A stretch of DNA of 64,000 nt from contig CAYPEN010000001.1 in the NCBI GenBank assembly GCA_964409875.1, positions 356,275 to 420,274 of the forward strand, read 5' to 3'. Source of the stretch: an uncultured Gammaproteobacteria bacterium (GTDB lineage: Bacteria; Patescibacteriota; Microgenomatia; Levybacterales; GWA1-39-11). Made by a program: the position numbers and the translations under genes. The notes under the pieces are model-generated. The model was not told where the DNA came from. It saw nothing but the letters and a program-made list of their open reading frames with translations, and did no database searches. The first letter of the stretch is position 1. Each line of letters opens with the position of its first letter. Positions 15,001 to 55,408 of this stretch are shown piece by piece.

Positions 15001-18000
15001 ATAGCTAATGGAACCGTAACATTCTCTAATGCGACTGCATTCAATGCCCTCACTGCCCTTGCGAAAGTCGATAGTCTCCAGGTCGGCGGCGGATACGGTT
15101 CAACAGGGGTAACTATTGGTAATACCGGTAACATCCAGGCAAATGGAACATTGACCGTTGACGGGACGTCAACTCTTACGGGAAATGTTACCGCCTCTGG
15201 AGACCTGGCTGTCAATGGAGCGACAAGCGCTGATATAACAACAACAACCGCAACCGCAACACTCTTTAATACTAATGCAACAACCCTTAATATCGGAGGC
15301 GCAGCAACAACCCTTACTCTTGGTGCAGGTGGCGGAACGACAACATTAACCAACAATCTGGCTGTAACTCTGAACGACAATTCTGTCGATGCGCTTGATA
15401 TACAGGAAGGGACAAATAATTACATCAATGTAAATACTACAGATGGTTCTGAAAACATTTCCTTTGGCAACACCACAACCAATCCGACATACTCATTCTT
15501 AGGTACGGGCGCGACAACCTTCTCAGGTAACATCAATGCCAATTCCGGAACCATTGCTACAAATCAAACTACGGGCAACGTATTCAACACAAATGCAACA
15601 ACTTTGAATATCGGTGGTGCCGCAACCAGCTACACGTTGGGTGCGACGAATGCAACCGGTAACGTAAGGGGCACTACCATCAACTTCCCGAATGCAACCG
15701 CCCTTAATGCTTCATCGGCATTAGCAACCCTTGACTCCGTTTCAGTGGGTGGCGGATACGGTTCGACGGGTACAACACTTTCAAATACCGGCAACATCCA
15801 GGCGAACGGGACATTAACTGTTGATGGCATATCAACGTTGACAGGAGATGTGACTACATCAGGGGATGTTGCTGTTAACGGTGGAGACCTAACAACAACT
15901 GCTGCTACTGCTACACTCTTTAATACAAATGCGACCACCCTTAATATTGGTGGCGCGGCAACGGCTTTAACATTAGGTGCAACAACAGGCACAACCTCTA
16001 TCAGAAACAACCTTATTGTTTCGGGAACATCGACATTCAACGGAGATGTGACCGTTTCAAATGCACGCTCATTTGATGCGTCGGGATCTGCTACCTTTAC
16101 ACCTTCCGGCACAAATGGGGTCACTATCAATACAGATGCGGATTCGTACCTGACTCTTACCGGACTTTCTTCAAGCACGGGAACTCCAATTTGTCTTGAC
16201 GGCTCAAACCATGTAATCGCATGTGCAAACGCAACGCTCTCACTCCAAAATGCATACAATGGCGGAAACACTATTGACACATCAGACAGTAGAGATATTG
16301 CATTTAATCTGTCAGACACCACAACCGACAGCAATTTTGCTGTGACGACCACGACCGGCTCAACAGGCTACAGCGCATTTACCAGGGCCGACGGCGCAGG
16401 AACAGCAGACCCAGCACAGCTCGTTCTTATCCAAAACCTTGATACCAATCGTGCACAGCCGATTGGCTTGAAAGTCGCAGGAGTCTCAGGAGGCAACATC
16501 ACAACAGGAATTGATTTGACCGATTCCAACCTGACGACCGCTTTGGCACTCGGGGCTAACAATGTGTCGGCAACCAACTTCTCGATAGCAGGTTCGACAG
16601 GGAACATCACGACTTCAGGAGATGTAGCTGTAAACGGCGGCGACTTGACAACAACCAATGCTACCGCAACCCTATTTAACGCGAATGCGACAAATCTTTC
16701 AATCGGAAGCGCAGCAACAACTTACACAGTGGGTAGCAACACGGCAACGGGCAATATTCACGGTACAACAGTCAACTTTAATAATGCAACCGCTCTTAAC
16801 GCCGCGTCCGCCTTGGCAACCCTCGATTCCGTTTCAGTGGGCGGTGGATACGGCTCAACCGGAGTTTCCATCTCTAACGCGGGTAATATCCAAGCAAATG
16901 GTGACTTAACTATTGACGGGGCATCAACGCTTACAGGGAACTCGTCTGTCGGTGGCACCTTTGATGTAACGGGTGCAACCACACTCCACTCGACGCTAGC
17001 CGTTACAAGCACCGGTACATTTGGCGGGGACATCAATGCAAATTCCGGCACCATTGCTACCAATCAGACAACCGGCAACATCTTCACGACTAACGCTACC
17101 ACTCTTAATATAGGAAGCGCAGCAACAACCGTCTCGCTCGGAGCGGGAAGCGGTACAACAACAGTCAACAATGCCCTGACGGCAACAGGTCTTATCACCG
17201 GTAACGCAGGGGTAACGGTTCCTTCCGGCCAGACTCTTTCTGCAAGCGGTCAGTCGACCTTTGCACCGAATTCAACAAATGACATAACATTTACAACCGA
17301 TGCTGACTCAACGATACATATCACAGGCCTTAGTGATACTACCGGTACACCACTTTGTCTGAACGGAACAAACGATGTTATTACCTGCTCGGGAAATAGC
17401 ATTACCCTGCAAAATGCGTATAACGGCGGCAACACAATTGACACATCTGACAACCGGGATATTGCGTTCAATCTGTCAAATACAACAACCGACAGCAATT
17501 TTGCTGTGACGACCACGACCGGCTCAACGGGCTACAGTGCATTTACAAGAGCAGACGGAGCTGGAACTGCAGACCCGGCACAATTGGTTCTCATCAAAAA
17601 TCTTGATACCAACCGGGCTCAGCCGATTGGCTTGAAAGTCGCAGGAGTTTCAGGAGGTAACATAACAACGGGAATTGATCTTACCGACAGCAACCTGACC
17701 ACCGCTCTTGCTTTGGGAGCAAACAATGTGTCAGCAACCAATTTCTCCCTCACCGGTTCAACGGGAGATATAACTACCGCTGGGGATATTGCAGTCAACG
17801 GCGGAGACGTGACTACAACTTCTTCAACCGGCAACCTCTTCAATGCGAATGCAACAACCGTTAATATTGCAGGCGCAGGGACCGGGGTCACAATCGGTGC
17901 CAACAATTCGGGAACGACGACCATCAGAAATGCTGCCGTTACATTCTCAAACGCTTCAACATTTGATGCGCTGAGCGCGACAGCCGGATTTGACACAGTT

Positions 18001-31678: not shown

Positions 31679-32781
31679 CTAGTTCTGAGTTGTAATAATT
31701 AATTGAGGAGCAAACTGGCTTTCTTTGCTTCCAAAACTGACTTCTCCCGAAAGAGATTCATCATCTTTCTTTAAGATCCAGCCGAAGTTTGAAGAGCTAC
31801 TATTTAGAAAATCATTCAAGTCAGTCGTCACATTAAAATCAATAGTGCCGGTTTGATTGTTTACGATTGTGTTAGTTGCAGTGGGTAATGAAACGAATGG
31901 CAAAGTACTATTGTTTAGCATATCCCAGGAGGTTGCACAGTCGGTTAGTGTATTTCTTATATTATTATCTACAGAACAGCCCCAAGTTGCGCCTTGTCCC
32001 GTTCCTCGGTCCGGGTTAATTGCACCGTTTATAAATCCATTTCCTTCTACCCAGTCAGATGAGAGCCGATACAGTGAGATGGGGCCTACCTGTAGCGCTC
32101 CAATTATTGGCATTATTTACTATTTTTAATCGTAGGGTTGCATTTGAGATGGTTGAACTTCCTACTGCTGCCTGGATTTGCGATTGGTCAAATTTCACCA
32201 AGGCTCTATTCTTCCCGGTTGACTTCAAACGTAAAAAAGTAGATAGACCTTCATTTTCATTTGGATAATCTTTTTTAATCCATGTATCTGCGGAGGGTGT
32301 TAGTGTAATTGAATTCTGGTTTACTGTGGGATAATCGGATTCAAAGGGCATATTTTCAATCAGGAAATTAGGAGATACCGCTACCTGATTATCGCAGTCC
32401 TGGTTTGCATTTTCATAGACAATACTAAATCGTGCGATAGTATCTCCAAATTGAAATGGGTCACTGCCGAAAGTTCCGGATGTAGAAAATTGTGCCAATG
32501 GTACGATGTTTTGGTCTTGAATGCTATTGTTACTATCAAGCGGAGGATCTGACATATCTTGGGTCGAAGTATTGAGTGCTACCGAAAAAATCTGCAGGTG
32601 AGTTGCTTCCTGTGCAATCGCCAGTTAGGGCAGGAAGAGCAGCAATGTCGCTTGAGGTCCAGGACAAAGAATAATCCCAATTTCCATTGTTGTTATATGT
32701 CGATAAATGCCAGGCAAAAGATGGATTAACAATTCCGAACAAAAATATAAAGAGTCCTGTAAGTACTCCTAACTTTTTCAT
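31679..32781 (-). pseudogene. secreted DNRLRE-domain protein gene, split into three frames by two frameshifts (pseudogene, phase-variable gene or homopolymer sequencing errors)
   Basis: Three overlapping minus-strand ORFs in three frames (32536-32781 with signal peptide MKKLGVLTGLFIFLFGIVNPSFA; 32055-32555; 31679-32113). Together they read as one protein containing LRLKSTGKNRALVKFDQSQI...ISNATLRLKI...NNWSATG...YRLSSDWVEGNG...GATW, a DNRLRE-type domain. Deleting one base in the A6 run 32585-32590 fuses frames A and B. The second shift maps near the G4/C2 run at 32081-32086. Confidence 0.6.
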
Positions 32782-32851: not shown

Positions 32852-35332
32852 CTATTGTATCGTTGTTCCACCTTTTATTGTCGTTCCTCCTCTAATGTTG
32901 ACATCAAGAGGAATGGTTGTTACTTGCGGATAATTCCGATATGCAGCAAGGTCTGAACTATCAGAATTAGTGATTTTGATGCAATAGGTTACTGAAGTTG
33001 AATCATCGGAATTATCAATAAGAGAAAAATCAAAAAGTCCTGCTCGGTTATTGGCAATAGCATTCTGGTCATTTGAGATGTTGTCGTAAGCAAGTACACC
33101 AATATTGGTATCCTCAAAGTAGTTCTCAAGAACGGTAGTGTATGTCGGAGTATCTGCAGGGTCATTTGCCGTAGAGGATATTACATCACCCGATGCAGGA
33201 GTCGCATTAGGATTGAACGATATTGGAGTACCGCCGGAAGGGTCAAGTACCTGAGCATATGTCCCATCTGCGCAATTTCCGCTTGTTGGAAGCGCAGCAT
33301 ATTGAAGAATAAAATCTCCAGCATCCACTCCAAGACTTCCCGTAGCACTATCAACATCAAGAAGCATACGAAGACGGAACGGGTAATTCGGCTGAGCCAG
33401 TGTTATGGGAGAATTTACGGCTGTGGTGCCGCCAAAGATGGTAGTTGGGTTGGCGGCATCAGTATTTTCAAAAAAACGGTAACTGCCCTGTGAAATAGTA
33501 ATTTGGGCATTATAAGCAGCAACGGCTGAGGAACAAGTACCTCCGGCGCCAGACCAAGTGACAATATCACGTTGAGACGTTGGAGGATTATTAACGGCCT
33601 CTCCCCAACCGCTTGTGTAGCTTGCTGCCCCTCCGGAATAGCCATCAGATCCACCATTTATATCCGTATCCGTAAAACCCGTTGATGAAGCACCGGTAAT
33701 TGCATTATGAGAACTGACGGTAAGACTACCATTCGTTGATGCAGCTGCGCTTACTAAAAGTTCATCAGGATTTGTGGGTGTAAGTGTGTTGGAGGTTTCA
33801 GTATGTGCCCCAGTATTACAAGTAGTATTTCTATGAACTGATGATACTTTGTCAAAAAAGCCGCTTGATGAATTCCCTGAGAATTCAAGCAATTGTGCCG
33901 CTATCTCTCCACTATTTGTAGTTGTTGTGCACGCTTGGGACGATATAGGTGCAGCAGGAGCAGTTCTATCAAAAAGATATATATTCGGACTGTTAGCAAT
34001 TCTGAAACGGCGGGTCCAGCTGCCGGGAGTGGAGAACGTATTGCTTGTATCCCTTGAACAGATGAGTACAAGAAGATGGCCGGATGTGGTGGGCGTGCTA
34101 AGCGTTGCTGTTACAGATGTACCTGATGCAGCAGTGTTATGGGCTTCCTGAACAAGAGAGAAAATTGAGTCGGAGGCAATTTGCCACTCCTGCCCCTCAG
34201 AGAATTGCCCAACTTTGAAAGGCCCGACCAGATAAAATTCCGGTGAAATATAGGGGAATTTTATGGTGTAGGAAAGCACGTGAGTTTCGCCCTTTTTCCA
34301 ATCAACTTGCCACTCTAGAGTCTTAATCTTGTTGTAATCGGCTATATCTCCGTGCTCCGAAATATCAAATATTTGAAAATTTGATGGAACGGTGTCATAG
34401 ACTGTTCCCGCAAAATCCCTATTCGCAGTTACTTTGATTTTCACCGGATAGTTGAAGCGTGGATAGATACGCATCGGATATTGAACCCTTTCTATAGTAT
34501 ATGGGGCAAAATCTCTGACCGTAAAAAATGAATCCATTTCATTGCTTCCTAAATAATTTTGCGCTTTTATATGCATCGTGTAACGACCGGTTTCCAAAGC
34601 CTTCGTTTGGGCAGTAAAGTCCGGGATATTGGTAAATGAGCGGTCTGCACACGTCTTACTTCCTGATATTGTGCCATTATCAGTCGAGAATTCTTCGGTT
34701 TTGCCGGTAGGGCTTGTTATGGTGAGCCAGAGTTTTGCCGTACCGAAAACAATTTTTCCCTCTTTTGCAATGCATTTCGTGATACCAAAATCATCGAGAA
34801 CCGCCATGCCGATATTTACCTCATCTCCCTTCATGTAAAACCCCTTATTGGTGTTGATAGCCAAAACTCCCCAGGTAAAATCCTGCGTTACTGTAATGTC
34901 TTCACCTGTATATGTTTTTACTTTTACGTCTAACATGTAAAGACCGGGCTTGAACCTGTTTTCTGTCTTTGGGGTAACGATAAGCTGCTTGTCGCGGTCG
35001 TTAAATTGGGTGTCTACTTTGAGTGAGATATCTCCTTTAGCGTTAGTAACACTTCCTTTGACCATTTTTTCGCGTTCTGCTGCATGCGCAGTCCACATGT
35101 TTTTAAATTTTTCTTCTGTCAATTTGAAAGCAAACTGCGGCAATGTATTTGCCTGGACAGCAATAGGTTTGTCATTTTGGTTTTGTCCTACAACAAAAAG
35201 CTGCCGCTGTTGTTGAATAGGAGACGGAGTGACTGATTCAGGTGCTTTTAAATAGACAATTACGAAAAAAACAAGAAGTCCAAGTGGTAAAAGTAACGAA
35301 GCAAACAATAGAAAAAGCCTTTTTAGGTTCAT
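32852..35332 (-). CDS. hypothetical secreted/membrane-anchored protein (826 aa), paralog 1
   Basis: Complete ORF with an N-terminal hydrophobic anchor (LFLLFASLLLPLGLLVFFVIVYL). Shares about 40-50% identity and the same domain order with the 35372-37834 product. C-terminus YRNYPQVTTIPLDVNIRGGTTIKGGTTIQ. Confidence 0.8.
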   Translation of the reverse strand: MNLKRLFLLFASLLLPLGLLVFFVIVYLKAPESVTPSPIQQQRQLFVVGQNQNDKPIAVQANTLPQFAFKLTEEKFKNMWTAHAAEREKMVKGSVTNAKGDISLKVDTQFNDRDKQLIVTPKTENRFKPGLYMLDVKVKTYTGEDITVTQDFTWGVLAINTNKGFYMKGDEVNIGMAVLDDFGITKCIAKEGKIVFGTAKLWLTITSPTGKTEEFSTDNGTISGSKTCADRSFTNIPDFTAQTKALETGRYTMHIKAQNYLGSNEMDSFFTVRDFAPYTIERVQYPMRIYPRFNYPVKIKVTANRDFAGTVYDTVPSNFQIFDISEHGDIADYNKIKTLEWQVDWKKGETHVLSYTIKFPYISPEFYLVGPFKVGQFSEGQEWQIASDSIFSLVQEAHNTAASGTSVTATLSTPTTSGHLLVLICSRDTSNTFSTPGSWTRRFRIANSPNIYLFDRTAPAAPISSQACTTTTNSGEIAAQLLEFSGNSSSGFFDKVSSVHRNTTCNTGAHTETSNTLTPTNPDELLVSAAASTNGSLTVSSHNAITGASSTGFTDTDINGGSDGYSGGAASYTSGWGEAVNNPPTSQRDIVTWSGAGGTCSSAVAAYNAQITISQGSYRFFENTDAANPTTIFGGTTAVNSPITLAQPNYPFRLRMLLDVDSATGSLGVDAGDFILQYAALPTSGNCADGTYAQVLDPSGGTPISFNPNATPASGDVISSTANDPADTPTYTTVLENYFEDTNIGVLAYDNISNDQNAIANNRAGLFDFSLIDNSDDSTSVTYCIKITNSDSSDLAAYRNYPQVTTIPLDVNIRGGTTIKGGTTIQ

Positions 35333-35371
35333 TTAAATGATTGAATTCAATTTTATTATAGCAAATGAAAA

Positions 35372-37834
35372 TTACTGAATCGTTGTTCCTCCGGTAATTG
35401 TTGTTCCTCCTTTGATATTTACATCCAACGGAATGGTCGTTACTTTCGGATAATTTCTATATGCATCTAGTAGTGACTGGTCTCCATTTGCTACAACCAG
35501 GCAATACGTAGTTGAAACAGAATCGTCGGTGTTATCAATAAGAGAAAAATCAAAAAGTCCGGCCTGGTTATTGCCCATCGTCAAGTTGTGGTTTGTAATA
35601 TCCTCGCTTCCGTCAGAAAGCCACGTCTCCGCATAATCTTCAAGTCTTGTTGTGTAGCCGGTATCGGTAGGATCGTTTGCAGTCGCTCCAATAATAGCAT
35701 TATTCCCACCGGAATTTGGATTGGGGTTGTATGCAATCGGGGTTCCATCAGCTTGGGTTCCAACAGGGTTATAGGTTCCGTCCGCACAGTCCCCGGAAGA
35801 TGGAAGTGGTGCATACATCAATATCCAGTCACCGCTATCTACATCCACTATTGTGCCTGAGGGACTGTCAACATCAAGCAGTATCCTGAGCCTGAAAGCA
35901 TACCCGGGTTGGCTAAGAGTAATTGGACTATTTTCTGTTGCGGTTCCTCCAAAAACGGTAATGGGGTCTACCGCATCGGTGTTTTCGAAAAACTGATAGC
36001 TCCCTTGTGAGACCGTGACCGTTGGGTTGAAAGAAACAATGATATTTGCACACGTTCCGCCCGACGCGTTGTAGGTTGCGGTATCATGGGTTGATACTGG
36101 TGGATTATTAACCTGTTCTGACCATGAACTGTCAAAAGTTCCTGTTGAGCCGTTAAAGCTGGCTGCGGTATCAGCGTAATCACTCAGATGGCTTCCGACA
36201 CTCGTTGTACCTGTTGCCGCAAAGGCCGCAACAACCAGTTCGTCAGGATTAGCTGGTGTTATATTGGATGTTGCACTCTGATGGGCGCCAGTACTGCAAG
36301 AAAAAGCATTTCGTCTGGCACGCCTATCTCTCACGCTACTGGTCGAGTTGCCTGAAAACTCGAGTATTTGAATTCCCAATGTGCCTGAGCTTCCCGAGCA
36401 GGTGACCGTAGCTGACATTCCTGTCGGAACCACACGGTAAAACATATAGGCTCTCGGGTTGCTCGTTGAGTTATTGTATGCGAGGGTAAATCCTGACGGG
36501 GTGTTAAATGTTGCACTGTTGGTTCTATAACACATAACAAGAACAAGATTTCTTTGTGTAGGAGCTGAAGGCAGCGTTGCACTTACAGAAGTACCGCTTC
36601 CATTATTGTGGGTTTCCTGGACAAGCTGAAATATGGAGTCAGATGCAATTTTCCACTCTCTTTTTTCTGTGAATGTACCAATTGTAAAAGGTCCAACTAG
36701 ATAAAATTCGGGAGCGACTTGGGGAAAATGTATAGTGTATGAGAAGTGATAAGTCTTACCCTTTTTAAGCGTTGTTTCCCACCCGACTGCTTGATAATCA
36801 GTTGTGTTTTCTGTCACGCCACCGTTTGAAATGTGAGTAATTTTGAAATTTTTAGGTACAATATCATGAATATAGCCTGAAAAGTCCTCATTTGATTTAA
36901 TAGTAACAGTAACCGGGTAATCTACTTTTGGATAAATTCTTGTAGGAAATTTTGTCCGCTCTATCTCAAATTTTGGTTCATTTTGTTCTACAACAAATGA
37001 TGTTTGTATGCTTCTCTTGCCCAGATAATGTTCTGCGTCCATTTGAATTTGGTATGTTCCGACCTCATTTGCAGTAATTCTACTCAAAAAATCAGCTTTA
37101 TTAGTAACACTTCTGTCTTTACAGTCTCCGCTTCCCCATATAGACCCATCCTCAGTAGACAGTTTTGTAACTTTACCTGTAGGACTTGTTATTGTCAGCC
37201 ACACTTTGGCGGTATTTAATTGAATGTCACCTGTTGCAATGCATTTTGTCCTTCCATAATCGCCCAAAACAGCCATGCCAATATTTACATCCTCGCCTAC
37301 TCTATATAGTGCCTTATTAGTATTTATTGCCAAAACACCCCATGTGAAGTCTTGCGTTATCTCTTCAGCTACCCCTGTTGCAGTTTTTACTTTAACACTC
37401 AATGTATAGAGCCCTGGTTTAACCTTGTTATCGTATTCGGGAGCTACGAGTACCTCTTTTTTTGTGTCTGAAAAACTTATATTTACATCAAGTTCTGAGT
37501 TCCCGGTCGCATGAGCAAAGCTGGCCTCTACAAGTTTTGTTCGCTCTATACCACTCGCCCGCCAAACATTATCGAATTTATTGTTTGACAGAGATACAGC
37601 AAACTTCGGAAGAGTTGATGCTCTTACTGTGATGGGAGTTTCTGAAGTTCTTTTAGATATTGGGATTACTCGTTCTCTTAGAGGTTTCAGAGAAGCATAA
37701 TTATGGGTATTCTTTGTTGTTTTAGACGGTTTACTTTTGGACTGAGAAAGTACAATCAATATTGAAAAGCAGAGAGCTAAAACTAGGAAAGAAATTACAA
37801 AACTTCGGAGCATCTCTCTAAAAGTATAGCACAA
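35372..37834 (-). CDS. hypothetical secreted/membrane-anchored protein (820 aa), paralog 2
   Basis: Complete ORF with an N-terminal anchor (FVISFLVLALCFSILIVL). Shares the LVL..C.R..TP.G.T and LEFSGNS...C.TGAH...NPDEL motifs with paralog 1. C-terminus YRNYPKVTTIPLDVNIKGGTTITGGTTIQ. Confidence 0.8.
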   Translation of the reverse strand: MCYTFREMLRSFVISFLVLALCFSILIVLSQSKSKPSKTTKNTHNYASLKPLRERVIPISKRTSETPITVRASTLPKFAVSLSNNKFDNVWRASGIERTKLVEASFAHATGNSELDVNISFSDTKKEVLVAPEYDNKVKPGLYTLSVKVKTATGVAEEITQDFTWGVLAINTNKALYRVGEDVNIGMAVLGDYGRTKCIATGDIQLNTAKVWLTITSPTGKVTKLSTEDGSIWGSGDCKDRSVTNKADFLSRITANEVGTYQIQMDAEHYLGKRSIQTSFVVEQNEPKFEIERTKFPTRIYPKVDYPVTVTIKSNEDFSGYIHDIVPKNFKITHISNGGVTENTTDYQAVGWETTLKKGKTYHFSYTIHFPQVAPEFYLVGPFTIGTFTEKREWKIASDSIFQLVQETHNNGSGTSVSATLPSAPTQRNLVLVMCYRTNSATFNTPSGFTLAYNNSTSNPRAYMFYRVVPTGMSATVTCSGSSGTLGIQILEFSGNSTSSVRDRRARRNAFSCSTGAHQSATSNITPANPDELVVAAFAATGTTSVGSHLSDYADTAASFNGSTGTFDSSWSEQVNNPPVSTHDTATYNASGGTCANIIVSFNPTVTVSQGSYQFFENTDAVDPITVFGGTATENSPITLSQPGYAFRLRILLDVDSPSGTIVDVDSGDWILMYAPLPSSGDCADGTYNPVGTQADGTPIAYNPNPNSGGNNAIIGATANDPTDTGYTTRLEDYAETWLSDGSEDITNHNLTMGNNQAGLFDFSLIDNTDDSVSTTYCLVVANGDQSLLDAYRNYPKVTTIPLDVNIKGGTTITGGTTIQ

Positions 37835-37844
37835 TTAACCTAAG

Positions 37845-40148
37845 CTATTGCTTGGGAGCGGCTGTAGGAGTCGTATTGAGAGCTGGCAAATTAGCATTTG
37901 GATTCTTCTTTACTGCAGCGGGAGTTGCAGGGGTTGGAGGATTATTGAGTCCATTGACTCCTACGTTCTGAAGATTTTCGCCTTGCAGGCCAGTATTATT
38001 TTGTCCGGCTGGTGCGGTTTGGGTGTTCTTTGAAGCCTCTGCTGCTTTGTCTGTCAATTCTTTCAAAAGAGTTTGAGCAACTTTGTAATCATTGCTGTTA
38101 GGATTGTTCTTTGCAAGGATATTTACAACCTGCTCAGCTACAGTCTTGGCGTTTTGGACATCTCCCTTGTCGCGGAGTGCAATTGCCAGGTTAAAGTAAG
38201 CATTCGCATGGTTTGGTTTCAGGTTCGCCGCATCTGTAAAGAAGCGGATTGCCAAGTCATAATTCTTTGCTGCATAATACACTCCTCCAACATTAAGTCT
38301 AAGCTCAGGATTTAATGGATCCCTCTGGATTGCTCGGCCGTAAGCGTCGAGTGAGAATGCAAGTGCGTTTTGTGCAACCCCCGAGATATTTCTGTAGATT
38401 GATGCGAGAACTACCCAATTTCGTGACGAGAGAGGGCTAAGCGCTACAGCGATTCTTCCTTCGTTGATTGCCTGTGAAAGGAGTGTCTGGATTGTTCTTC
38501 TGTCCTGATCAGTAAGAGTACCTTTAGGGTTATCTTTTGTAGGACCTTTCTGGATAGCAAGCGCATTTGCGAGTGCGAAATTAGTTTGTGCAATATCTAC
38601 CCTATACAAGTCGATTACAGGATTGAGTGATTCAGCTTTTTGCAGGTTGGTATAAGTTTGAGTTCCACTCTTTGCGGCAACAGTCAAAGCCTGTCTGTGA
38701 TAATAATCAGCAAGGACAGCATTGTACGTAGTGTAAAGGACAGGAACAGCTACAATAAGAAATACTACGAAGAATATGATGGGAAGAAGGTCAAATTGCC
38801 TGTCATCAACTGTTGATGCTTTCAGTCCCATTGAGAAGTGCATGACTTTTTCCCTGATTGACTTCTGAGCAACCATTAGCGCGGCAAATACTATTATTGT
38901 CGCAACGAAAGATACAAGTGTCGATGCATGAATTGCAAGAAGAACAATGGTTGTGATTCCGCTAACAGCAAGTGCGGGAACAATTACTGTCGTATTATCA
39001 TGCTGTACTTCCGCCGCTCTCATGGAGAGATTTCTCCATGAATTTATGAACACAATAAGGCAGACAAGCGCGAGTGAAAGAAGTCCGAGTATTCCGATAG
39101 TTCCAAGTGTCTGAAGATATTCGTTGTACGCCGTATCGAAAGTGAAGTTCCAATAATCGAGAAGATTGAATTCAAGCGGCTTATAATTTGTGAAGTTGAA
39201 TAAATAGGTTGACGGTCCTGTGCCGATGAAAGGAGCATCTCTGAAAGTTGATGCAGAAATCTTCCATGAAACTGAGAAGGGAAGCTGTATTTCATGAGGG
39301 AATTTAGAAGCCAATTCCTGTACTTTATTGCCGGGAAATGGAAGATACACAAGAACTAATGCAAGAGCTACTACCGCAACTGGAGTTAGAAACATAGGCA
39401 AACCCTTTTTGAATTTCGCTACTTTATGAGGTTTTGTCACAAAGAAACATAAAGCAAATACAATGGCAAGCGCAATGTAGGCTGGTACAGACCCAATAAG
39501 CGCAACCGTTACACCGAAAAGAATCGAAAGTGCTAACGCAACAGGAGCCGGCATGTATTTATTCACACTAACAATAGAAAGCAAGGGAAGAGGAAGCAGC
39601 AATGTGAGAAGTGCTACAGTTGAGAAAGATGAACCTGTTGGAGTGAAGTTAACCGCTTTTGCAAAAGAAAATGGAAGATAAATATTAAAGAACGAAAGTA
39701 TTGAAATAAGAGCAACAACAGCTGCGCTTCCATATAATACATACAGCAAAGTCTTTAATTTGGTAAAGTTTTTGAGGTTGGATACGGCAACAAAATACAA
39801 CAAAATATATGTCACCCATGCCACGGCCGAACCGTGAACCCGTGGGAAATTGCCATATATTGATTGGAACCTCGATTGACTGAAGTAGGTAGATGCAATA
39901 ACAATACCTAGCAATATTAATAAAGGAATATCTAGGGGAGTTCTAGTTATCTGGACTTTCCCTTTCACAATCCATGAAAAAATCCAAAGTCCGACGAGAA
40001 GAACAGTTGCCACAACAAGAAAAATGAGCTTAGGCATTTCGAAAAACTCGGTGGTTTGATTGAGAAAAAGAAGAGGTGTTACACCTACTACGGCAAGTAG
40101 TAAAAATGAGATGGCATTATCAACAATAACTCCTAATTGACCTTTCAT
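37845..40148 (-). CDS. polytopic membrane protein with C-terminal TPR repeats (O-antigen ligase/Wzy-like topology)
   Basis: 767 aa. More than 10 predicted TM helices in the N-terminal 480 aa. C-terminal TPR-like helical repeats (AKNYDLAIRFFTDAANLKPNHANAYFNLAIALRDKGDVQNAK) and a Pro/Thr-rich tail. The Wzy assignment is by architecture only. Confidence 0.75.
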   Translation of the reverse strand: MKGQLGVIVDNAISFLLLAVVGVTPLLFLNQTTEFFEMPKLIFLVVATVLLVGLWIFSWIVKGKVQITRTPLDIPLLILLGIVIASTYFSQSRFQSIYGNFPRVHGSAVAWVTYILLYFVAVSNLKNFTKLKTLLYVLYGSAAVVALISILSFFNIYLPFSFAKAVNFTPTGSSFSTVALLTLLLPLPLLSIVSVNKYMPAPVALALSILFGVTVALIGSVPAYIALAIVFALCFFVTKPHKVAKFKKGLPMFLTPVAVVALALVLVYLPFPGNKVQELASKFPHEIQLPFSVSWKISASTFRDAPFIGTGPSTYLFNFTNYKPLEFNLLDYWNFTFDTAYNEYLQTLGTIGILGLLSLALVCLIVFINSWRNLSMRAAEVQHDNTTVIVPALAVSGITTIVLLAIHASTLVSFVATIIVFAALMVAQKSIREKVMHFSMGLKASTVDDRQFDLLPIIFFVVFLIVAVPVLYTTYNAVLADYYHRQALTVAAKSGTQTYTNLQKAESLNPVIDLYRVDIAQTNFALANALAIQKGPTKDNPKGTLTDQDRRTIQTLLSQAINEGRIAVALSPLSSRNWVVLASIYRNISGVAQNALAFSLDAYGRAIQRDPLNPELRLNVGGVYYAAKNYDLAIRFFTDAANLKPNHANAYFNLAIALRDKGDVQNAKTVAEQVVNILAKNNPNSNDYKVAQTLLKELTDKAAEASKNTQTAPAGQNNTGLQGENLQNVGVNGLNNPPTPATPAAVKKNPNANLPALNTTPTAAPKQ

Positions 40149-47019: not shown

Positions 47020-47598
47020 TCACGATTCAAATCCTAAGGATTGCGTAATTTGTTGCATTGCAGAAAGTACAATGGCAGTGTATTCCCTAATGGGAAAACC
47101 CAATTTTTCTTCGCAAATAACGATTTGCGCCCTGTCAACATTTTTTGCGAAATTTGAGTCCTGCATTTTTTGAATAACCATATCTACTGTTACAGTATTT
47201 AATTTCTTTTCCCTTTGGGAGAGCGCACATGAAATTACAAACCCTGTTAGCTCATCGCACGTATAAAGTGCCCAGTCCATCGAGGTTTGCGGTGGAATAC
47301 CTGTAAAACGGTAATTATGCGCCTTAATAGCACTCAGTACATCCTTCGAAAGGACGTTGCCAATTTTCTCTTCCAAATACAGAGTGTGTTTTTCTGGATG
47401 ACTCCTGGTCAATTCGTAATCCGCATCGTGTAGCAATCCGGCAATAGCCCAACTCTCTTCATTTTCAGCCTTTCTCGTTTTTGCTGCATATACCCGGCAA
47501 ATGGCCCGCATCGCAGCCTCAACTGCCAAATGATGGCGTATAAGGTTGGGTGCTTTCGTATATACCTGCAGTGTTTGTATTGCTTCTTGTCTTGTCAT
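47020..47598 (-). CDS. HD-domain phosphohydrolase
   Basis: 192 aa with an HD motif (RHHLAVEAAMRAI...IAGLLHDADYE). Confidence 0.8.
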   Translation of the reverse strand: MTRQEAIQTLQVYTKAPNLIRHHLAVEAAMRAICRVYAAKTRKAENEESWAIAGLLHDADYELTRSHPEKHTLYLEEKIGNVLSKDVLSAIKAHNYRFTGIPPQTSMDWALYTCDELTGFVISCALSQREKKLNTVTVDMVIQKMQDSNFAKNVDRAQIVICEEKLGFPIREYTAIVLSAMQQITQSLGFES

Positions 47599-47660
47599 TA
47601 AAAAAGTATACTACTTTTAGGGTTTAGGGTTTAGGCAAAATTTGTAGTAAAAGCTTTTTT

Positions 47661-47757
47661 TGTGGATAATATAGGATTCGAACTTGTGACCTTTGCAATG
47701 TGAATGTGCCGTAATGAAATGGTTAATGCCCTGGGGTGCAACGCTCTACTTTTTTAA
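47661..47757 (-). pseudogene. degenerate tRNA-Val-like pseudogene with a ~31-nt insertion in the anticodon arm and no 5' acceptor/D-arm
   Basis: The reverse complement reads ...GTAGAGCGTTGCA[CCCCAGGGCATTAACCATTTCATTACGGCACA]TTCACATTGCAAAGGTCACAAGTTCGAATCC... It aligns to tRNA-Val but has an insertion and a T-stem that does not pair. Confidence 0.45.
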
Positions 47758-47873
47758 TAAAGGCAAGCTGCGCTTATCTAGCTGAACTAATCGTCTCCGG
47801 TAATAATTTAGAGGCAAGACTCATCACTTCTAAAACAAGTTTTTCTACATGTAATTGCCCAACCAGATGTATG

Positions 47874-47945
47874 TGGACGACGTTGGGATCGAACCAGCGA
47901 CCTCTTCGATGTGAACGAAGCGTTCTACCACTAAACTAGTCGTCC
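47874..47945 (-). tRNA. tRNA-Val (anticodon CAC)
   Basis: Manual cloverleaf: GGACGAC TA GTTT AGTGGTA GAAC G CTTCG TTCACAT CGAAG AGGTC GCTGG TTCGATC CCAAC GTCGTCC A. One C·A mismatch in the T-stem. No encoded CCA. Confidence 0.7.
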
Positions 47946-47966
47946 TCACCCACCGTATTTTCTTTG

Positions 47967-48041
47967 TGGACCCAAGAGAACTCGAATCTCTGACCTTTGC
48001 AATGTCAATGCAACGCTCTAACCAAACTGAGCTATGGGTCC
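47967..48041 (-). tRNA. tRNA-Val (anticodon GAC)
   Basis: Manual cloverleaf: GGACCCA TA GCTC AGTTTGGTTA GAGC G TTGCA TTGACAT TGCAA AGGTC AGAGA TTCGAGT TCTCT TGGGTCC A. Confidence 0.8.
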
Positions 48042-48077
48042 ACAAAGAAAACAACCCTCAATGGAACATGCTTCATT

Positions 48078-48102
48078 GCAACCAGCTGAGCTATTCGTCC
48101 AC
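48078..48102 (-). pseudogene. tRNA-Val 5' fragment (acceptor + D-arm only)
   Basis: The reverse complement GGACGAATAGCTCAGCTGGTTGC matches the first ~23 nt of tRNA-Val(UAC) at 57774-57846, and nothing follows it. Confidence 0.5.
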
Positions 48103-48145
48103 GGGCTTTCCGCTATTTTATCAAATTGTCCGTGCGTGAACAAAC

Positions 48146-48577
48146 TTAAGCGACATTCGTTGGATTTGCCGAAGTAGGCAATGCTTCTTTACGCCCTATC
48201 AAATGCAGCGCGCTATTCGGTAGCAAACCGGTATCATCAATGGTTGCAAGAACCATAATGCTCGATTCTTCGCTTAGGTGTTCTTCGTGAAGTTCGCTTA
48301 CGAGCGCAAGATCTCCTTTTCCTTCAATTACTGCCTGAACTGCTTCGTCTTCTGTGTCTCTTCTTGAGTAAGCGGCTACATTTCGATGCCGCATGTTTTC
48401 CGCACCGAGTAGATTTTCAACAACAGAAATCGGTTCAACTGTGGTTATTCTTGGCTGGTGAATTTCGGTTGTTTTGTCTCCTAACATAATATCTCGAGGG
48501 TTGACCATAACAGAAATTTCCTGCCCTCCTACAGTTAATAATTTGCGTTGCGGTTTACCCTTCTTCTCATTTTCCAT
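48146..48577 (-). CDS. hypothetical protein (143 aa)
   Basis: The ORF extends to 48625, but the internal ATG at 48577 is preceded by AGGAGGTG (MENEKKGKPQRKLL...). It overlaps and follows the 70-aa gene. Confidence 0.6.
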   Translation of the reverse strand: MENEKKGKPQRKLLTVGGQEISVMVNPRDIMLGDKTTEIHQPRITTVEPISVVENLLGAENMRHRNVAAYSRRDTEDEAVQAVIEGKGDLALVSELHEEHLSEESSIMVLATIDDTGLLPNSALHLIGRKEALPTSANPTNVA

Positions 48578-48602
48578 ATTACAATACACCTCCTTTCCAT
48601 AT

Positions 48603-48815
48603 TTATACGAAAAGTTCTCCACCATTTTGACTTAAATCTGCCAATTCAAGCCGCACTTGCATAAGCCGGATTTCATCTGCGTATTCTTGTGCAAGTTGTG
48701 CAAAATTATCAATAAAATCAATTCCTTTACCAATTGGTTGCATTTGAACGCTACCGCCGGCAATAAGACTTTCTTCATTTTTTTGTAAAATTAATTCCGT
48801 TTCCATAAAAATCAC
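48603..48815 (-). CDS. hypothetical protein (70 aa)
   Basis: The ATG is preceded by AAGGAGGTGATTTTT. Product MIFMETELILQKNEESLIAGGSVQMQPIGKGIDFIDNFAQ... Confidence 0.55.
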   Translation of the reverse strand: MIFMETELILQKNEESLIAGGSVQMQPIGKGIDFIDNFAQLAQEYADEIRLMQVRLELADLSQNGGELFV

Positions 48816-48893
48816 CTCCTTAATGCGTCAGGAGGAAATCCTCCCTTCGAGTGTTAAGTATTTTGTCTTCCAATCTGTGTCCATTTTTCCAAC

Positions 48894-48982
48894 AAAAAAC
48901 CTTCGCGTTTTTGGAACTTTCGTTCCTGCGAAGGTTGTATAAGCATTAGCCCAGTGGGATACAACCCTCGCTTACGCGAAGG
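48894..48982 (-). promoter_or_regulatory. structured 5'-leader/attenuator-like element: nested hairpins plus an intrinsic-terminator-like stem followed by U6
   Basis: Minus-strand RNA: CCUUCGCG ... GGUUGUAU-(18 nt)-AUACAACC ... CCUUCGCAGG AACGAAAGUUCC AAAAA CGCGAAGG UUUUUU. Three copies of CCUUCGC(G), two of which can pair with the single CGCGAAGG. It lies ~80 nt upstream of the 70-aa gene start. Confidence 0.4.
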
Positions 48983-49071
48983 TAAAGTATCTAAACCACT
49001 TATGTGCTAATGTTTTCATTATTAATTATTGTAATAAGTAATTGTTTCCTCGTCAAGGGTAAATTACTTTT

Positions 49072-49746
49072 TTACGCATTCATATTGTCAAAAAAGTTGC
49101 GCCGGCGTTGTAAATCATCGAGAACCAATGACGCCTCATCGATAACATTGTAAGGTATATTCGCCGTAAGTCTAATGGGATCATTCTCTAAAAATGAGGG
49201 TAAGAAGTTGGGTAGTGACTCCAACTTTGCATGCAATTCCTCAAGAGAACCTACATCTGGAATAGGTAGCGGTCTTTTTTGGGTTGGCATAGTATCAAAC
49301 GATTTCTGGGCTAAGCCCATTGACCTCACCAAATCCTCAGCAAATTGCACCTCAGTAATTGGAGCTGTTGAATTCCGGTTAAAGATATCTGTTGCATGAG
49401 ACAGGGGAATAATTCGTACCGGAACTTTTACTCTATCTGTATACCGTGCCCTGTGATGTCCGTCAGTTATTGCCAAATAGGCAGCATCCCTACAAAAAAG
49501 TGGCACTGCCAATGTCGGATTTTTAAGAAGAGTCAAATACCCTTGTCCTTCTTCTTGTTGCAGCAGTTTTTCTGTTCCCCTTCTGCTTTTAATTGAGTAC
49601 GCTTCTTTCGGCTGCACACCATATAAATGAATTTTGGGCACAAGAAACACACCGGTTTTTGAAATATCAGAAGGAGTCAGAAAATCTTGCCTCAAGCATG
49701 GTTCGGCAAATGATGTAAGTATTCCTCTATTTTCTTGTTTTTCCAT
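49072..49746 (-). CDS. ParB/Srx-like nuclease-domain protein (putative)
   Basis: 224 aa. The motif LAITDGHHRARY resembles the ParB N-terminal/ParB-like nuclease DGHHR signature. No HTH is recognised. Confidence 0.5.
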   Translation of the reverse strand: MEKQENRGILTSFAEPCLRQDFLTPSDISKTGVFLVPKIHLYGVQPKEAYSIKSRRGTEKLLQQEEGQGYLTLLKNPTLAVPLFCRDAAYLAITDGHHRARYTDRVKVPVRIIPLSHATDIFNRNSTAPITEVQFAEDLVRSMGLAQKSFDTMPTQKRPLPIPDVGSLEELHAKLESLPNFLPSFLENDPIRLTANIPYNVIDEASLVLDDLQRRRNFFDNMNA

Positions 49747-49757
49747 AAATTAACCAC

Positions 49758-49783
49758 AAAAAAACCTCCCGTCTTGTGGGAGG
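49758..49783 (-). terminator. rho-independent terminator (CCUCCC-loop-GGGAGG followed by U7 on the minus strand)
   Basis: Plus strand: AAAAAAA CCTCCC GTCTTGT GGGAGG. It lies downstream of the 49920 gene stop. Confidence 0.6.
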
Positions 49784-49919
49784 TTTGTAAAAATTATCTA
49801 CTATTCCTCCACACTACTACACTCCTAGAAGGAGCATGCAAGTAATGTGAAGAGAATTTCTTTTCATTTTGTTTATTTTAATGAGCATACTACTATTTTG
49901 TCAACGAGGAAATAAACAT

Positions 49920-50357
49920 TTATTCTCCGTCAGAACCTTCGCTTGCGCTGGAATCACTGTCCGAGCTTCCGACTACTCCATCAAAGCCAGAATTATCTGT
50001 GGTTGCTTCAGCTGTTGCTTCAGGAGCAGCTTCCCAACTTACATCAGTGCTGCTTGTTTGCTCAGAGTCCATAATTGATGCCAATTCTCCCCGAACCTCC
50101 TCGAGTTGAGCGTCTTCAGATGATATTGTAGGGCTAGTTAGGTTAACGGCTTCATTGTTAAGCCGCACTGCTTCTCCTAAAAACATTGCTCCACTCAAAA
50201 GTGGTGCTCCGTCAGGAGTAACATTTAACGGCTCAATACGTTCATGCCTCTCATTTCTTGCCGTGGCAAAACTTAGACCACGTAACCTATTATCGATAAT
50301 TCTCGTTACGTCGTTTACAATTTCCTCTCGTAATATATTTGCTTCAAAACGATTCAT
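49920..50357 (-). CDS. hypothetical acidic protein (145 aa; ORF could extend to a GTG at 50414)
   Basis: MNRFEANILREEIVNDVTRIIDNRL... with a C-terminal acidic Ser/Asp/Glu-rich tail. The ATG at 50357 lies immediately downstream of the terminator hairpin at 50364-50389, and the longer version would translate that hairpin. Confidence 0.55.
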   Translation of the reverse strand: MNRFEANILREEIVNDVTRIIDNRLRGLSFATARNERHERIEPLNVTPDGAPLLSGAMFLGEAVRLNNEAVNLTSPTISSEDAQLEEVRGELASIMDSEQTSSTDVSWEAAPEATAEATTDNSGFDGVVGSSDSDSSASEGSDGE

Positions 50358-50363
50358 AATCAC

Positions 50364-50389
50364 AAAAAAACCTCCCGTTTTGTGGGAGG
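50364..50389 (-). terminator. rho-independent terminator, near-identical copy of the 49758-49783 element
   Basis: Plus strand: AAAAAAA CCTCCC GTTTTGT GGGAGG. It lies downstream of the 50484 gene stop. Confidence 0.6.
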
Positions 50390-50483
50390 CACTAAAAACT
50401 TTTCTCCCACACACCCTCTAACCCTTAATAAGGTTAAAAAGATGTATGTAAGAAAAGTTTCTATTCATATTTAAATTATAATT

Positions 50484-51161
50484 CTAGCCAGTCTGTGTTG
50501 CAACTGCCCTATCGTGATGCATTGTGTAGCTTGTCCCGCCCTTTTTGGCCATTGCGTGATAGCTCCTCTCCTGTTTGCGGCTCCTAAATAGCTGGGCATA
50601 AATTACCCCATCTTGAACTTTGTCACGCATTTTTATAACAAGCTTCAAAAATCCCTCGTAAAATGTAAGGTGATAAATACCTGGTTTTTCTGGAACCTCA
50701 TCAATTACGACGTCTTTGAAAACCGTTTCAAGTTCATCGGACGAGTCTTTTAATTTTCTCAGTTCTGCAAGAATCATCTCGAGCTGCTGTCTTATAGCAA
50801 CTGAATCTTCATTGGTCCTTTTATTTTCGGAATTTCTCTTAAACTCAGCAAAATATTGTTGATGTTCAACCGTTGCAACTGCTTTTTCATGCGTTGCCTC
50901 AGATGAAACTTTCTCTTTTTCTCTGGCAGCCAAGGAAACCGATTTTCCTGCCTTAAGTTCAACCCCGAATATTTGATTAAGAACGACATTGAATTCCGTT
51001 TTTGCCTCACTTGCGACCGCTTTATTTGCAGATTTTATTGTTTCTGTATTGAATAGTTGAGGTTTTTTTGCGCTCTCGAAGAACTTTTTGAACAGATTTC
51101 CCCCATCCGAGTGAACTCTTTCCTCTCCTGTATATTTTGTAGGTTTTACCTGCCCTTTCAT
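50484..51161 (-). CDS. hypothetical protein (225 aa)
   Basis: Complete ORF, charged and Lys/Glu-rich. No recognised motif. Confidence 0.55.
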   Translation of the reverse strand: MKGQVKPTKYTGEERVHSDGGNLFKKFFESAKKPQLFNTETIKSANKAVASEAKTEFNVVLNQIFGVELKAGKSVSLAAREKEKVSSEATHEKAVATVEHQQYFAEFKRNSENKRTNEDSVAIRQQLEMILAELRKLKDSSDELETVFKDVVIDEVPEKPGIYHLTFYEGFLKLVIKMRDKVQDGVIYAQLFRSRKQERSYHAMAKKGGTSYTMHHDRAVATQTG

Positions 51162-54499: not shown

Positions 54500-54765
54500 A
54501 AATAACTATGGGTTTGTCAAGTGTATAACTATAAGTTGCTGTGAGTTATTTGGCTTCAAAATTCTACCATTTATTGACAAACACAGAACAATTCGGAGAA
54601 TTTTCATGGGTTTGTCAAGTGTATAACTATAAGTTGCTGCGCGTTATTTGAGGCTAATGTGCAGCAACTTTATTTCATATAAGTTACCTAATATTATTTG
54701 ATGCTAATATACAGTAATTTTATTATATATAAGTTACTGTGGGTAATTTGAGGCTATTTATAGAG
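54500..54765. repeat. array of four imperfect direct repeats (TATAAGTTRCY-N4-6-TTATTTGRNGCTA) including a 45-nt near-perfect duplicate and an 8-bp inverted repeat
   Basis: 54507-54555 and 54604-54652 share (t)gggtttgtcaagtgtataactataagttgctg. Further copies lie at ~54678-54710 and ~54728-54765. The hairpin is gttgctgc-N20-gcagcaac at 54636-54672. Confidence 0.7.
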
Positions 54766-55408
54766 AATCAGAGAGTTTTTGCATGATGAGTGTCACGACT
54801 TGTGGCCATTTTCCCGTATCTGAAGGGGTATATAGCTTCACAATGTCATGAGGGTTCACCAAACCTTTTTGAACGTATTTTTTGGCTAATGTTGAAGTTA
54901 CGGTCGAAATAGCTTCATCATAGCTGGAAAACCTTGTAATTTTACCCCCATAAATCCCAAATCCCCAACAATTGTACGAATTTTTGATTATTTTTCTACA
55001 TAACGTGCTCTCCTGCATGGCAATAGCAGGAAGGAGTCTATAGTCGATATCGTGCTTGTCAGCCTCAGAAACTATAGTTTGTGCGTGACCGAGAAGAGGT
55101 GAATCATATTTGGCAAAAAAATCATCCAGCGCCTTCACTCTGGCATCAGTTGTTTCTACACCTACGCTACTTTGGGTATTGGCATCTGGAAGTGCTTGGA
55201 ATTGAGGCTTATGCTCCTGACGGGCAAAGTAACCGTTTCCTTGATACTTCACATACAAAGAGAAGAGGACTAAAAAAACAATGAAGAGTGGAATAACGGA
55301 GAGGTACGTTGCAATAAAAAGAAGGCGCTTTGTGCTCGGTGTTTTGGGGGCATTTTGAACTTGATTTAGAAGAATATTGTCTTCTTTTACGAGTTCCTCC
55401 TGTTCCAT
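54758..55408 (-). CDS. membrane-anchored glucosaminidase-domain (GH73-like) protein, paralog of 53842-54369
   Basis: N-terminal TM (LLFIATYLSVIPLFIVFLVLFSLYV). The motif DIDYRLLPAIAMQESTLCRKIIKNSYNCWGFGIYGG parallels the downstream paralog. Confidence 0.6.
   Translation of the reverse strand: MEQEELVKEDNILLNQVQNAPKTPSTKRLLFIATYLSVIPLFIVFLVLFSLYVKYQGNGYFARQEHKPQFQALPDANTQSSVGVETTDARVKALDDFFAKYDSPLLGHAQTIVSEADKHDIDYRLLPAIAMQESTLCRKIIKNSYNCWGFGIYGGKITRFSSYDEAISTVTSTLAKKYVQKGLVNPHDIVKLYTPSDTGKWPQVVTLIMQKLSDSL

Follow-up and report, generated by a model that had tools for sequence, protein, structure and literature searches.

Two adjacent genes on the reverse strand of a 64,000-nucleotide stretch from an uncultured Levybacterales bacterium (contig CAYPEN010000001.1 of assembly GCA_964409875.1, positions 356,275 to 420,274; hereafter the window) encode proteins of similar length, here called A and B, that end in nearly the same short peptide, and the question that this locus raises is what such proteins do and what that shared peptide is for. 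An original prediction, made from the letters of the window, had read them as secreted paralogues with a likely C-terminal tag and a possible Cys/His catalytic pair that might help to display or process a giant fibre protein encoded next door. Our analysis favours, at a probability of roughly 55% for the explanation as a whole, a reading in which A and B stem from an old duplication within a Levyibacteria-specific family of cell-surface proteins and are membrane-anchored beta-sandwich proteins with a binding cassette and a docking tail that work with the giant fibre protein and with a membrane protein combining an O-antigen-ligase-like Wzy_C domain and a TPR domain (Wzy_C/TPR). An anchored beta-sandwich surface protein is ordinary as a kind of thing; the A/B family itself is conserved, entirely uncharacterised, and built of modules that many Patescibacteria possess but that domain databases do not cover. 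The parts of most note are the portable tail and its possible tie to a commoner Patescibacteria tail.

Two related genes and their family

A and B align end to end (BLASTP: 824 columns, 47% identity, 65% positives, E = 0), which bears out the proposal of tandem paralogues with the same domain order, and each of the motifs that had been quoted for them (LLVLICSRD...TPGSWT, LEFSGNS, C(N/S)TGAH and NPDEL) was found in both sequences. Identity differs by part, such that the mid domain stands at 40%, the stalk domains at 48-53%, the C-terminal domain at 61% and the tail, as the best-conserved stretch, at 90% (coordinates of all parts are in Table 1). Because the NCBI gene call for B (P0024; P numbers denote proteins and L numbers loci) begins at an ATG seven codons inside the TTG-started open reading frame (ORF), B is probably 813 amino acids (aa) long with its start at 37813.

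A word-indexed search revealed ~35 full-length homologues at 34-80% identity, all of them unnamed or "hypothetical" and all from Levyibacteriota or other Patescibacteria, with the closest relatives labelled Candidatus Levyibacteriota or Patescibacteria. Of these, 26 were aligned, and the residue-conservation counts given below refer to those 26, with residues numbered as in A. Neither A nor B matched Pfam, NCBIfam, PHROGs or PDB sequence profiles above threshold, and keyword searching of the published literature gave nothing on the family. Many third-party (TPA) assemblies among the sources (L006-L008, L012, L013, L015, L017 and others) are titled 'uncultured Gammaproteobacteria bacterium', yet their loci are clearly Levyibacteria- or Patescibacteria-like, and these titles look like generic mislabels.

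Anchor, stalk and outer domains

Both proteins begin with basic residues followed by ~22 hydrophobic residues, and an AlphaFold2 model of full-length A (predicted local distance difference test, pLDDT, 78.4; predicted TM-score, pTM, 0.70) places a helix over residues 2-28, so the claimed N-terminal signal or anchor helix holds up. Across the family alignment this helix has a mean identity of 24% yet is always hydrophobic, and because no conserved cleavage motif accompanies it, a signal anchor seems likelier than a cleaved signal peptide. Lipoprotein anchoring was considered and rejected, as the N-terminus of A has no Cys and the LALC of B is unlike a lipobox and not conserved.

Beyond the N-terminal helix the model is all-beta, with no helices after residue 90. 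Some 85 distant relatives align only to A residues ~60-390, at 28-45% identity, and carry PF01835 (MG2), PF01551 (M23), PF13385 (Laminin_G_3) or PF10102 (DUF2341); within the family, PF01835 gives weak sub-threshold matches in 6 of the 26 members (best E 1.1e-4). Foldseek comparison with the PDB put complement C5/C3/C4, bacterial (E. coli) and human alpha-2-macroglobulin, CD109 and TEP1 at the top (E 1.9e-11 to 1e-7) with TM-scores near 0.1, as expected of strings of beta-sandwiches in a different arrangement. Together with the PF01835 on record for relatives, these top matches agree with the earlier suggestion of macroglobulin (MG)-type domains in the N-terminal portion. The module occurs in many Patescibacteria classes, with 284 stretches confirmed in GTDB representative genomes. 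It was also seen in contigs labelled as archaeal (Woesearchaeota, Nanoarchaeota, Bathyarchaeia and Hydrothermarchaeales; L031, L034, L047, L058, L066, L073, L074 and L076); either the stalk module is common to ultrasmall bacteria and archaea, or these bins are mixed.

Turning to the C-terminal half, a profile of it run against 1.84 billion cluster representatives returned 2,966 proteins at E<=1e-3 (1,085 at E<=1e-10), with most matches falling on the C-terminal domain, of which a single protein can hold as many as 13 copies. Its signature is Q..YR(F/W)(F).N ... FRLR ... (F)KLQYA ... DV ... N ... DP ... YEE ... G.WDF ... YC(F)R.V ... L..Y..YPE(I/V)T, and by these profile matches it is a widespread Patescibacteria repeat domain. 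It is also used in pilin-like proteins, as seen from P0121 (2,536 aa), in which a type IV pilin-like N-terminal methylation motif precedes 13 copies of the domain and a discoidin-like end. The mid domain is modular too, standing directly behind signal peptides and before copies of the C-terminal domain in at least 12 other proteins. Neither domain was found by sequence in Pfam-A, NCBIfam, PHROGs or the PDB, a broad repeat-domain profile gave a single chance-level match against the PDB and Pfam (E 0.026), and comparison of the two domains by hhalign detected no kinship between them beyond overlapping boundary residues.

A separate model of residues 384-826 (pLDDT 71.5) has an all-beta mid region and yielded no Foldseek match in the PDB at E<=1e-3, the best and non-significant folds being a nanoCLAMP derived from a carbohydrate-binding module (CBM; E 0.012), the SbsB S-layer protein (E 0.03) and immunoglobulin (Ig) V domains. 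Among predicted viral structures (BFVD), the same model gave 23 matches at E<=1e-3 (3e-6 to 1e-3), which are 200-250-aa proteins of uncultured tailed phages and actinophage "minor tail proteins" that align over ~230 columns with target-normalised TM-scores of 0.6-0.7, up to 0.71. No other fold match to the C-terminal half was significant, and the phage matches suggest a beta-sandwich of the receptor-binding type. A likeness to phages in sequence was not found for either domain, whether in PHROGs or by tblastn against 50,697 phage records.

A conserved and portable C-terminal tail

The last 28 residues of A (YRNYPQVTTIPLDVNIRGGTTIKGGTTIQ) and B (YRNYPKVTTIPLDVNIKGGTTITGGTTIQ) are identical at 25 positions, and the codons behind them comprise 13 that are identical, 12 that differ only synonymously and 3 that differ nonsynonymously. 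This excess of synonymous over nonsynonymous differences points to purifying selection on the tail peptide. Recent gene conversion as the origin of the near-identical tails was rejected, since 12 of the 28 codons differ synonymously. The tail is present in all of the ~35 full-length homologues in the form x-DV-x-I-R-GG-S/T-x-I-x-GG-T-x-I-x, and all 26 aligned members fit the longer pattern ...Y(R)NYP.VTT(I)..DV.I(R)GG(S/T).I.GG(T).I(Q/R), so that in other genomes it stands in every homologue that keeps its C-terminus.

Both structure models render the tail as a low-confidence coil. It is not part of the C-terminal domain, because internal copies of that domain do without it, ending in ...YPE(I/V)T, and the matches of the C-terminal-half profile stop at about position 418. 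It also follows other domain types, namely a LamG-like domain in a 1,883-aa ORF of L027, an FN3-like region in P0240 and uncharacterised regions in P0037 and P0048. A regular expression for the tail, applied to 771 ORFs of at least 150 aa from 82 fetched loci, hit family members and one other protein only, which shows the pattern to be specific and its matches not due to chance; no other protein of the window, the giant protein included, carries it. It has no match in curated Pfam or NCBIfam models, and literature searches with its motif strings gave no paper. Under purifying selection and also found behind unrelated domains, the tail is tag-like, much as the original prediction had supposed, and it behaves like a conserved, portable C-terminal element.

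A commoner tail, ...GPTLDQ(L/Q)(L/M)R(G/H)G..(F/V)..G...PF(S/T)(W/F), ends ~100 of the 265 Patescibacteria surface proteins that we retrieved, most M23 peptidase fusions included (P0045-P0120, P0131-P0263), and is placed right after the C-terminal repeat domain or after other domains; no Pfam or NCBIfam model covers it and no paper with its motif strings was found. The Levyibacterial P-L-D-V-N-I-R-G-G-T-T-I-K-G-G fits the register of this common tail, L-D-x-x-h-R-G-G-x-x-h-x-x-G. When scored with a position-specific scoring matrix of the common tail from which the RGG anchor was excluded, the Levyibacterial tails reach a mean of -12.7 against -22.8 ± 1.1 for shuffles, a level that 8.7% of internal xGG sites also attain. 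With a negative score and that share of internal sites equalling it, a common origin of the tails is possible, not shown, and their kinship is no more than suggestive. We consider it possible, if rather unlikely, that the GG-T-T-I tail and the common LDQ tail are versions of one Patescibacteria-specific C-terminal signal without a transmembrane (TM) helix, which would dock or sort surface proteins via a further component. Were this true, ultrasmall episymbiotic bacteria would have a targeting route for surface proteins that forms a class of its own, and much of the lineage's surface repertoire would depend on the signal, with the M23 peptidases, which may attack the walls of hosts, among its users.

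Among the alternatives to our reading, the one that survives best, though we regard it as improbable, takes the tail for a genuine signal for C-terminal sorting or anchoring, of a type so far undescribed in Patescibacteria, recognised and perhaps removed by an enzyme or receptor for attachment to the envelope. In favour, the tail lies at the extreme C-terminus, is strongly conserved and follows at least three unrelated domain types, and the common tail, with its shared register, takes the same position after the same domain or others in its ~100 carriers. However, A and B already have a probable N-terminal anchor, they end ...IRGGTTIKGGTTIQ with no hydrophobic stretch behind the motif, and the tail has neither the hydrophobic helix nor the basic cluster of LPXTG, PEP-CTERM, GlyGly-CTERM and PGF-CTERM signals. 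Furthermore, no sortase-like or dedicated protease gene was found in the 64-kb window or in the 10-kb flanks of syntenic loci, no NCBIfam or Pfam model describes the tail, and the link between the two tail types is of the suggestive kind just described.

Genomic neighbourhood

In a survey of GTDB representative genomes and metagenome contigs, the gene order PheT, Wzy_C/TPR, (B), A, convergent giant gene was conserved in about nine to ten distinct loci (L001/L002, L003/L016, L005, L007, L008, L012, L014, L015 and L018), with A identities of 44-78%, so that the position of the pair between the giant gene and the Wzy_C/TPR gene, which had been remarked on for the window, is a matter of conserved synteny in related loci. 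Orthologues of the giant gene adjoin the A family in L001-L003, L005-L008, L015-L018 and L020, and are convergent with it everywhere but in the rearranged clusters of L017 and L020. In these two loci the same setting (giant gene, DNRLRE gene, Wzy_C/TPR, PheT) holds a ~1,010-aa variant that keeps the N-terminal module, the C-terminal domain and the tail (DVLIQGGSLIQGGSLLQ) and has a different middle segment. The Wzy_C/TPR gene of the window lies directly upstream of B with a gap of 10-31 nucleotides and is probably co-transcribed; promoter and terminator scans gave the same counts as in shuffled sequence.

The tandem of B and A as in the window recurs in L005 and L012, most genomes carry only the A-type in the cluster, and the B-type clade is found at other loci elsewhere (L004/L011, L010 and L013), which indicates that the A/B duplication is old and the tandem limited to a subclade. 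These dispersed B-type genes are always immediately preceded by a gene for a conserved ~415-aa protein (L004 8698-9951; L010 8695-9930; L013 825-2105), which has two hydrophobic segments around a weakly Cache-like region (two-TM) and a C-terminus resembling an OmpR-type winged helix, and could be a membrane-bound one-component regulator.

Distant Wzy_C/TPR homologues (28% identity) stand directly upstream of 2,550-aa proteins in L042, L064 and L067 that possess the same N-terminal module as A and B and a quite different C-terminus, and the pairing therefore tracks the N-terminal module, or surface proteins generally, and not the tail. In L042 the Wzy_C/TPR homologue lies at 7447-9624 and the gene for the 2,550-aa protein at 9776-17446, with L064 and L067 alike. 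The end of the 2,550-aa protein, ...AGNYETKVTYILTGTY, is a third recurrent C-terminus that is also present in many of the other retrieved proteins.

Within the last 3,000 aa of the giant ORF, Laminin_G_3 is the only domain recognised, and the giant protein has neither the mid domain nor the C-terminal domain, nor a tail-like motif. Its start codon is TTG and its N-terminus, MATTQSSASLFNTNATT..., has no recognisable signal peptide. Given this neighbour, it is tempting to see in A and B structural components of the envelope, such as an S-layer-like lattice or a base plate for the giant fibre, with the tail serving self-assembly, possibly of A with B. The near-identity of the A and B tails within one genome, the conserved clustering with the giant fibre gene and the presence of SbsB among the weak fold matches (E 0.03) all lean that way. 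Yet the S-layer match is not significant, most related genomes have a single copy in the cluster, and the A-type and B-type tails of MAG318 differ at 12 of 20 positions, so we hold this explanation to be improbable as well.

The other neighbour invites an analogy with PilO/TfpO, a member of the Wzy_C family that glycosylates the C-terminal Ser of Pseudomonas pilin. By that analogy the Thr/Ser-rich tail, with its twofold GG-T-T-I, might be a glycosylation site for the Wzy_C/TPR protein acting as a protein O-oligosaccharyltransferase, with the TPR domain holding the peptide. The adjacency of the two genes is close and conserved, and nearly all tails have a Ser or Thr behind the first GG; the Wzy_C/TPR protein, however, matches only the generic Wzy_C family and none of the PglL-specific Pfam families, it also accompanies the 2,550-aa proteins with their different C-terminus, the dispersed B-type copies lie away from it, and the giant Thr-rich protein would be an equally plausible substrate. 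On balance tail glycosylation strikes us as quite unlikely.

The remaining genes of the window are housekeeping genes (PheST, ThrRS, IF3, L20, trigger factor and penicillin-binding proteins). Next to the giant gene, at 31679-32555 (-), one DNRLRE/CBM96-domain gene is split into two overlapping ORFs (31679-32113 and 32055-32555), the split reflecting either a frameshifted pseudogene or a sequencing error; in L017 its equivalent (7099-7818) has the giant gene on one side and the A-family variant on the other. Small ORFs of 159-224 aa with no Pfam match form a run (47020-50414 (-) and 54758-55408 (-)) that adjoins a DUF5660 protein (50484-51161) among translation and cell-wall genes.

Table 1. 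Positions in the window of the genes discussed and of the parts of A and B, with the basis for each.
Feature	Coordinates	Strand	Basis or remark
Paralogue A (A-type; copy syntenic in all related genomes)	32852..35332	-	ORF, 826 aa
A residues 1-28, hydrophobic helix (likely signal anchor)	35249..35332	-	DSSP helix 2-28 in AlphaFold2 model
A residues 61-389, ~three MG/Ig-like beta-sandwiches, invariant C187 and C228	34166..35152	-	Homology, Foldseek
A residues 390-611, mid beta-sandwich domain (C425, C468, E483, C505, H510, D523, C600)	33500..34165	-	Alignment
A residues 612-805, C-terminal domain (Q..YRFF.N ... FRLR ... LQYA ... WDF ... YC.R ... Y..YP.VT)	32918..33499	-	Profile search
A residues 806-826, tail TIPLDVNIRGGTTIKGGTTIQ	32855..32917	-	Conserved in full-length homologues
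Paralogue B (B-type clade)	35372..37834	-	ORF, 820 aa from TTG start
B N-terminal helix	about 37724-37813	-	Equivalent of A residues 1-28
B N-terminal module	36635-37621	-	Equivalent of A residues 61-389
B mid domain	36017-36634	-	Equivalent of A residues 390-611
B C-terminal domain	35438-36016	-	Equivalent of A residues 612-805
B residues 800-820, tail TIPLDVNIKGGTTITGGTTIQ	35375..35437	-	Codon comparison with A
Wzy_C (O-antigen-ligase-like) membrane protein with C-terminal TPR domain	37845..40148	-	Pfam Wzy_C 4.2e-11 and TPR families
Convergent giant gene, 10,502 aa	55..31563	+	ORF; T, G, A, N and S are 63% of residues

Conserved cysteines and the case against an enzyme

The region 400-620 had been proposed to hold a Cys/His catalytic pair, which would make A and B peptidase- or transglutaminase-like enzymes that process the fibre. 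In support, none of the 26 aligned members lacks C425 or C505, and both A and B have the His of C.TGAH. C600, E483, G486, D494 and D523 are invariant too, and C468 nearly so. The His, H510, is however absent in 10 of the 26 (P0012, P0014, P0015, P0019, P0020, P0021, P0026, P0031, P0033 and P0035), and in mid-domain homologues elsewhere in Patescibacteria C425 gives way to A, V, G or S and C600 to W or Y, and the C.TGAH stretch is unrecognisable. All told, C425, C505 and C600 are replaced in the homologous domains of at least 12 other proteins, and across the wider mid-domain family only E483 is kept, as the E of h-h-E-(Y/F)-S-G.

The cysteines are also lost in pairs, with P0149 and P0045 retaining C425 and C468 only, P0140 all four and the other mid-domain homologues none, for which reason we read C425+C468 and C505+C600 as disulfides. 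The further invariant pairs C187/C228 and C687/C784 agree with this, and the conserved cysteines are probably structural disulfides, a feature typical of extracytoplasmic proteins. Nor does the predicted structure of the 400-620 region resemble an enzyme, as it is all-beta with CBM-like and Ig V folds as its best PDB matches (none at E<=1e-3), no peptidase or transglutaminase is among the 50 listed PDB fold matches of the C-terminal half, and Pfam, NCBIfam, PHROGs and PDB profiles are unmatched. Taken together, the loss of H510, the paired loss of Cys, the absence of enzyme-like matches and a fold made up of beta-strands throughout refute the Cys/His pair as far as sequence evidence can, leaving an enzymatic role very improbable and sparing the search for a processing enzyme. 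Least probable of all is that A and B are alpha-2-macroglobulin-like protease traps, as their MG-like domains and top Foldseek matches might suggest, for with no CxEQ motif and no helical thioester domain (all-beta after residue 90) they are not thioester proteins, and they are about half the size of bacterial alpha-2-macroglobulins and resemble them with a TM-score of only ~0.1.

Proposed function

The reading that we prefer is therefore one of non-enzymatic, anchored surface proteins. Demonstrated so far are the descent of A and B from one ancestor, the order and modular nature of their domains, the conservation of the gene setting and selection on the tail. The N-terminal helix would hold A and B in the membrane of their own cell, and from it a stalk of MG/Ig-like beta-sandwiches, which by homology and predicted fold is a module that recurs in hundreds of surface proteins from Patescibacteria and DPANN, would extend outward. 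At the outer end of this stalk would sit a non-enzymatic cassette of two beta-sandwich domains (the mid domain and the widespread repeat domain), with disulfides presumably stabilising the domains outside the cell, and the cassette would end in a short flexible peptide of GG turns and alternating hydrophobic residues. We consider binding the most likely function, whether as adhesins or as receptor-binding proteins of the cell surface. The mid domain would then be an exchangeable specificity module, since it is the least conserved globular domain and is swapped in the syntenic genes of L017 and L020. Conserved synteny suggests a joint role for A, B, the giant fibre protein and the Wzy_C/TPR protein. 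As for the tail, our guess is that it would be a portable docking peptide that supplies strands to a partner protein or a fellow subunit, and not a site of sortase-like cleavage.

Several points weigh against this reading. Instead of serving as an anchor, the N-terminal helix could belong to a long signal peptide that is cleaved off, and both structure models are of moderate confidence (pLDDT 78 and 71.5). The phage fold match is without sequence support and can be assigned to the C-terminal half only as a whole, and we infer the binding role solely from folds and from the absence of catalytic features. Finally, synteny is linkage and carries no mechanism, and the neighbourhood may reflect the N-terminal module rather than the tail.

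Significance and comparison with known systems

Patescibacteria live attached to other microbes, and to our knowledge almost nothing is known of which of their surface proteins mediate this attachment. The locus described here is a conserved three-gene unit in which one or two stalk proteins accompany a giant fibre and a Wzy_C/TPR membrane protein, and it draws attention to two abundant domains described in no database as well as to a portable peptide at the C-terminus. Should this peptide serve in docking or sorting, many Patescibacteria surface proteins would be organised by it.

Among characterised signals, those of sortase, exosortase, rhombosortase and archaeosortase systems resemble the tail in being short, conserved motifs at the extreme C-terminus that are portable among secreted-protein architectures. 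LPXTG, PEP-CTERM, GlyGly-CTERM and PGF-CTERM differ from it in that the tail has no TM helix or basic cluster behind the motif and no NCBIfam model, and in that sortase-type systems have processing enzymes for which the window and the syntenic flanks hold no gene. With alpha-2-macroglobulin and complement (PF01835), A and B share MG-type beta-sandwiches, as seen from the fold and a weak profile match. Alpha-2-macroglobulins, however, have a bait region and seven or more MG domains in about 1,500-1,800 aa, whereas A and B lack a bait region as well as the thioester motif and its domain and place ~three MG/Ig-like domains ahead of the mid domain, which makes for a stalk and not a trap. The phage minor tail and other Caudovirales proteins of 200-250 aa are like the C-terminal half of A in fold and not in sequence, and are themselves predicted and uncharacterised structures.

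In sequence, A and B resemble the stalk proteins of Patescibacteria and DPANN, which have, as A and B do, an N-terminal hydrophobic helix and a ~330-aa module (QDF(T/S)WGVLA...NK; ...ISPE(F/Y)YL(V/I)GP), and many of which carry a conserved extreme C-terminal peptide. Most of these contain an M23 peptidoglycan endopeptidase as a ~180-aa insert between the equivalents of A ~321 and ~336 and end in ...MRHGKWF..G..QPFTF, whereas A and B have no PF01551 match, carry the mid and C-terminal cassette instead, and end in the GG-T-T-I tail. Gram-positive Ig-stalk adhesins are anchored by a C-terminal LPXTG where A and B would use the N-terminal helix, and the distal domains of A and B belong instead to Patescibacteria-specific families without a characterised member, but the logic is the same in both: an anchor, a beta-sandwich stalk, distal binding domains and structural cross-links.

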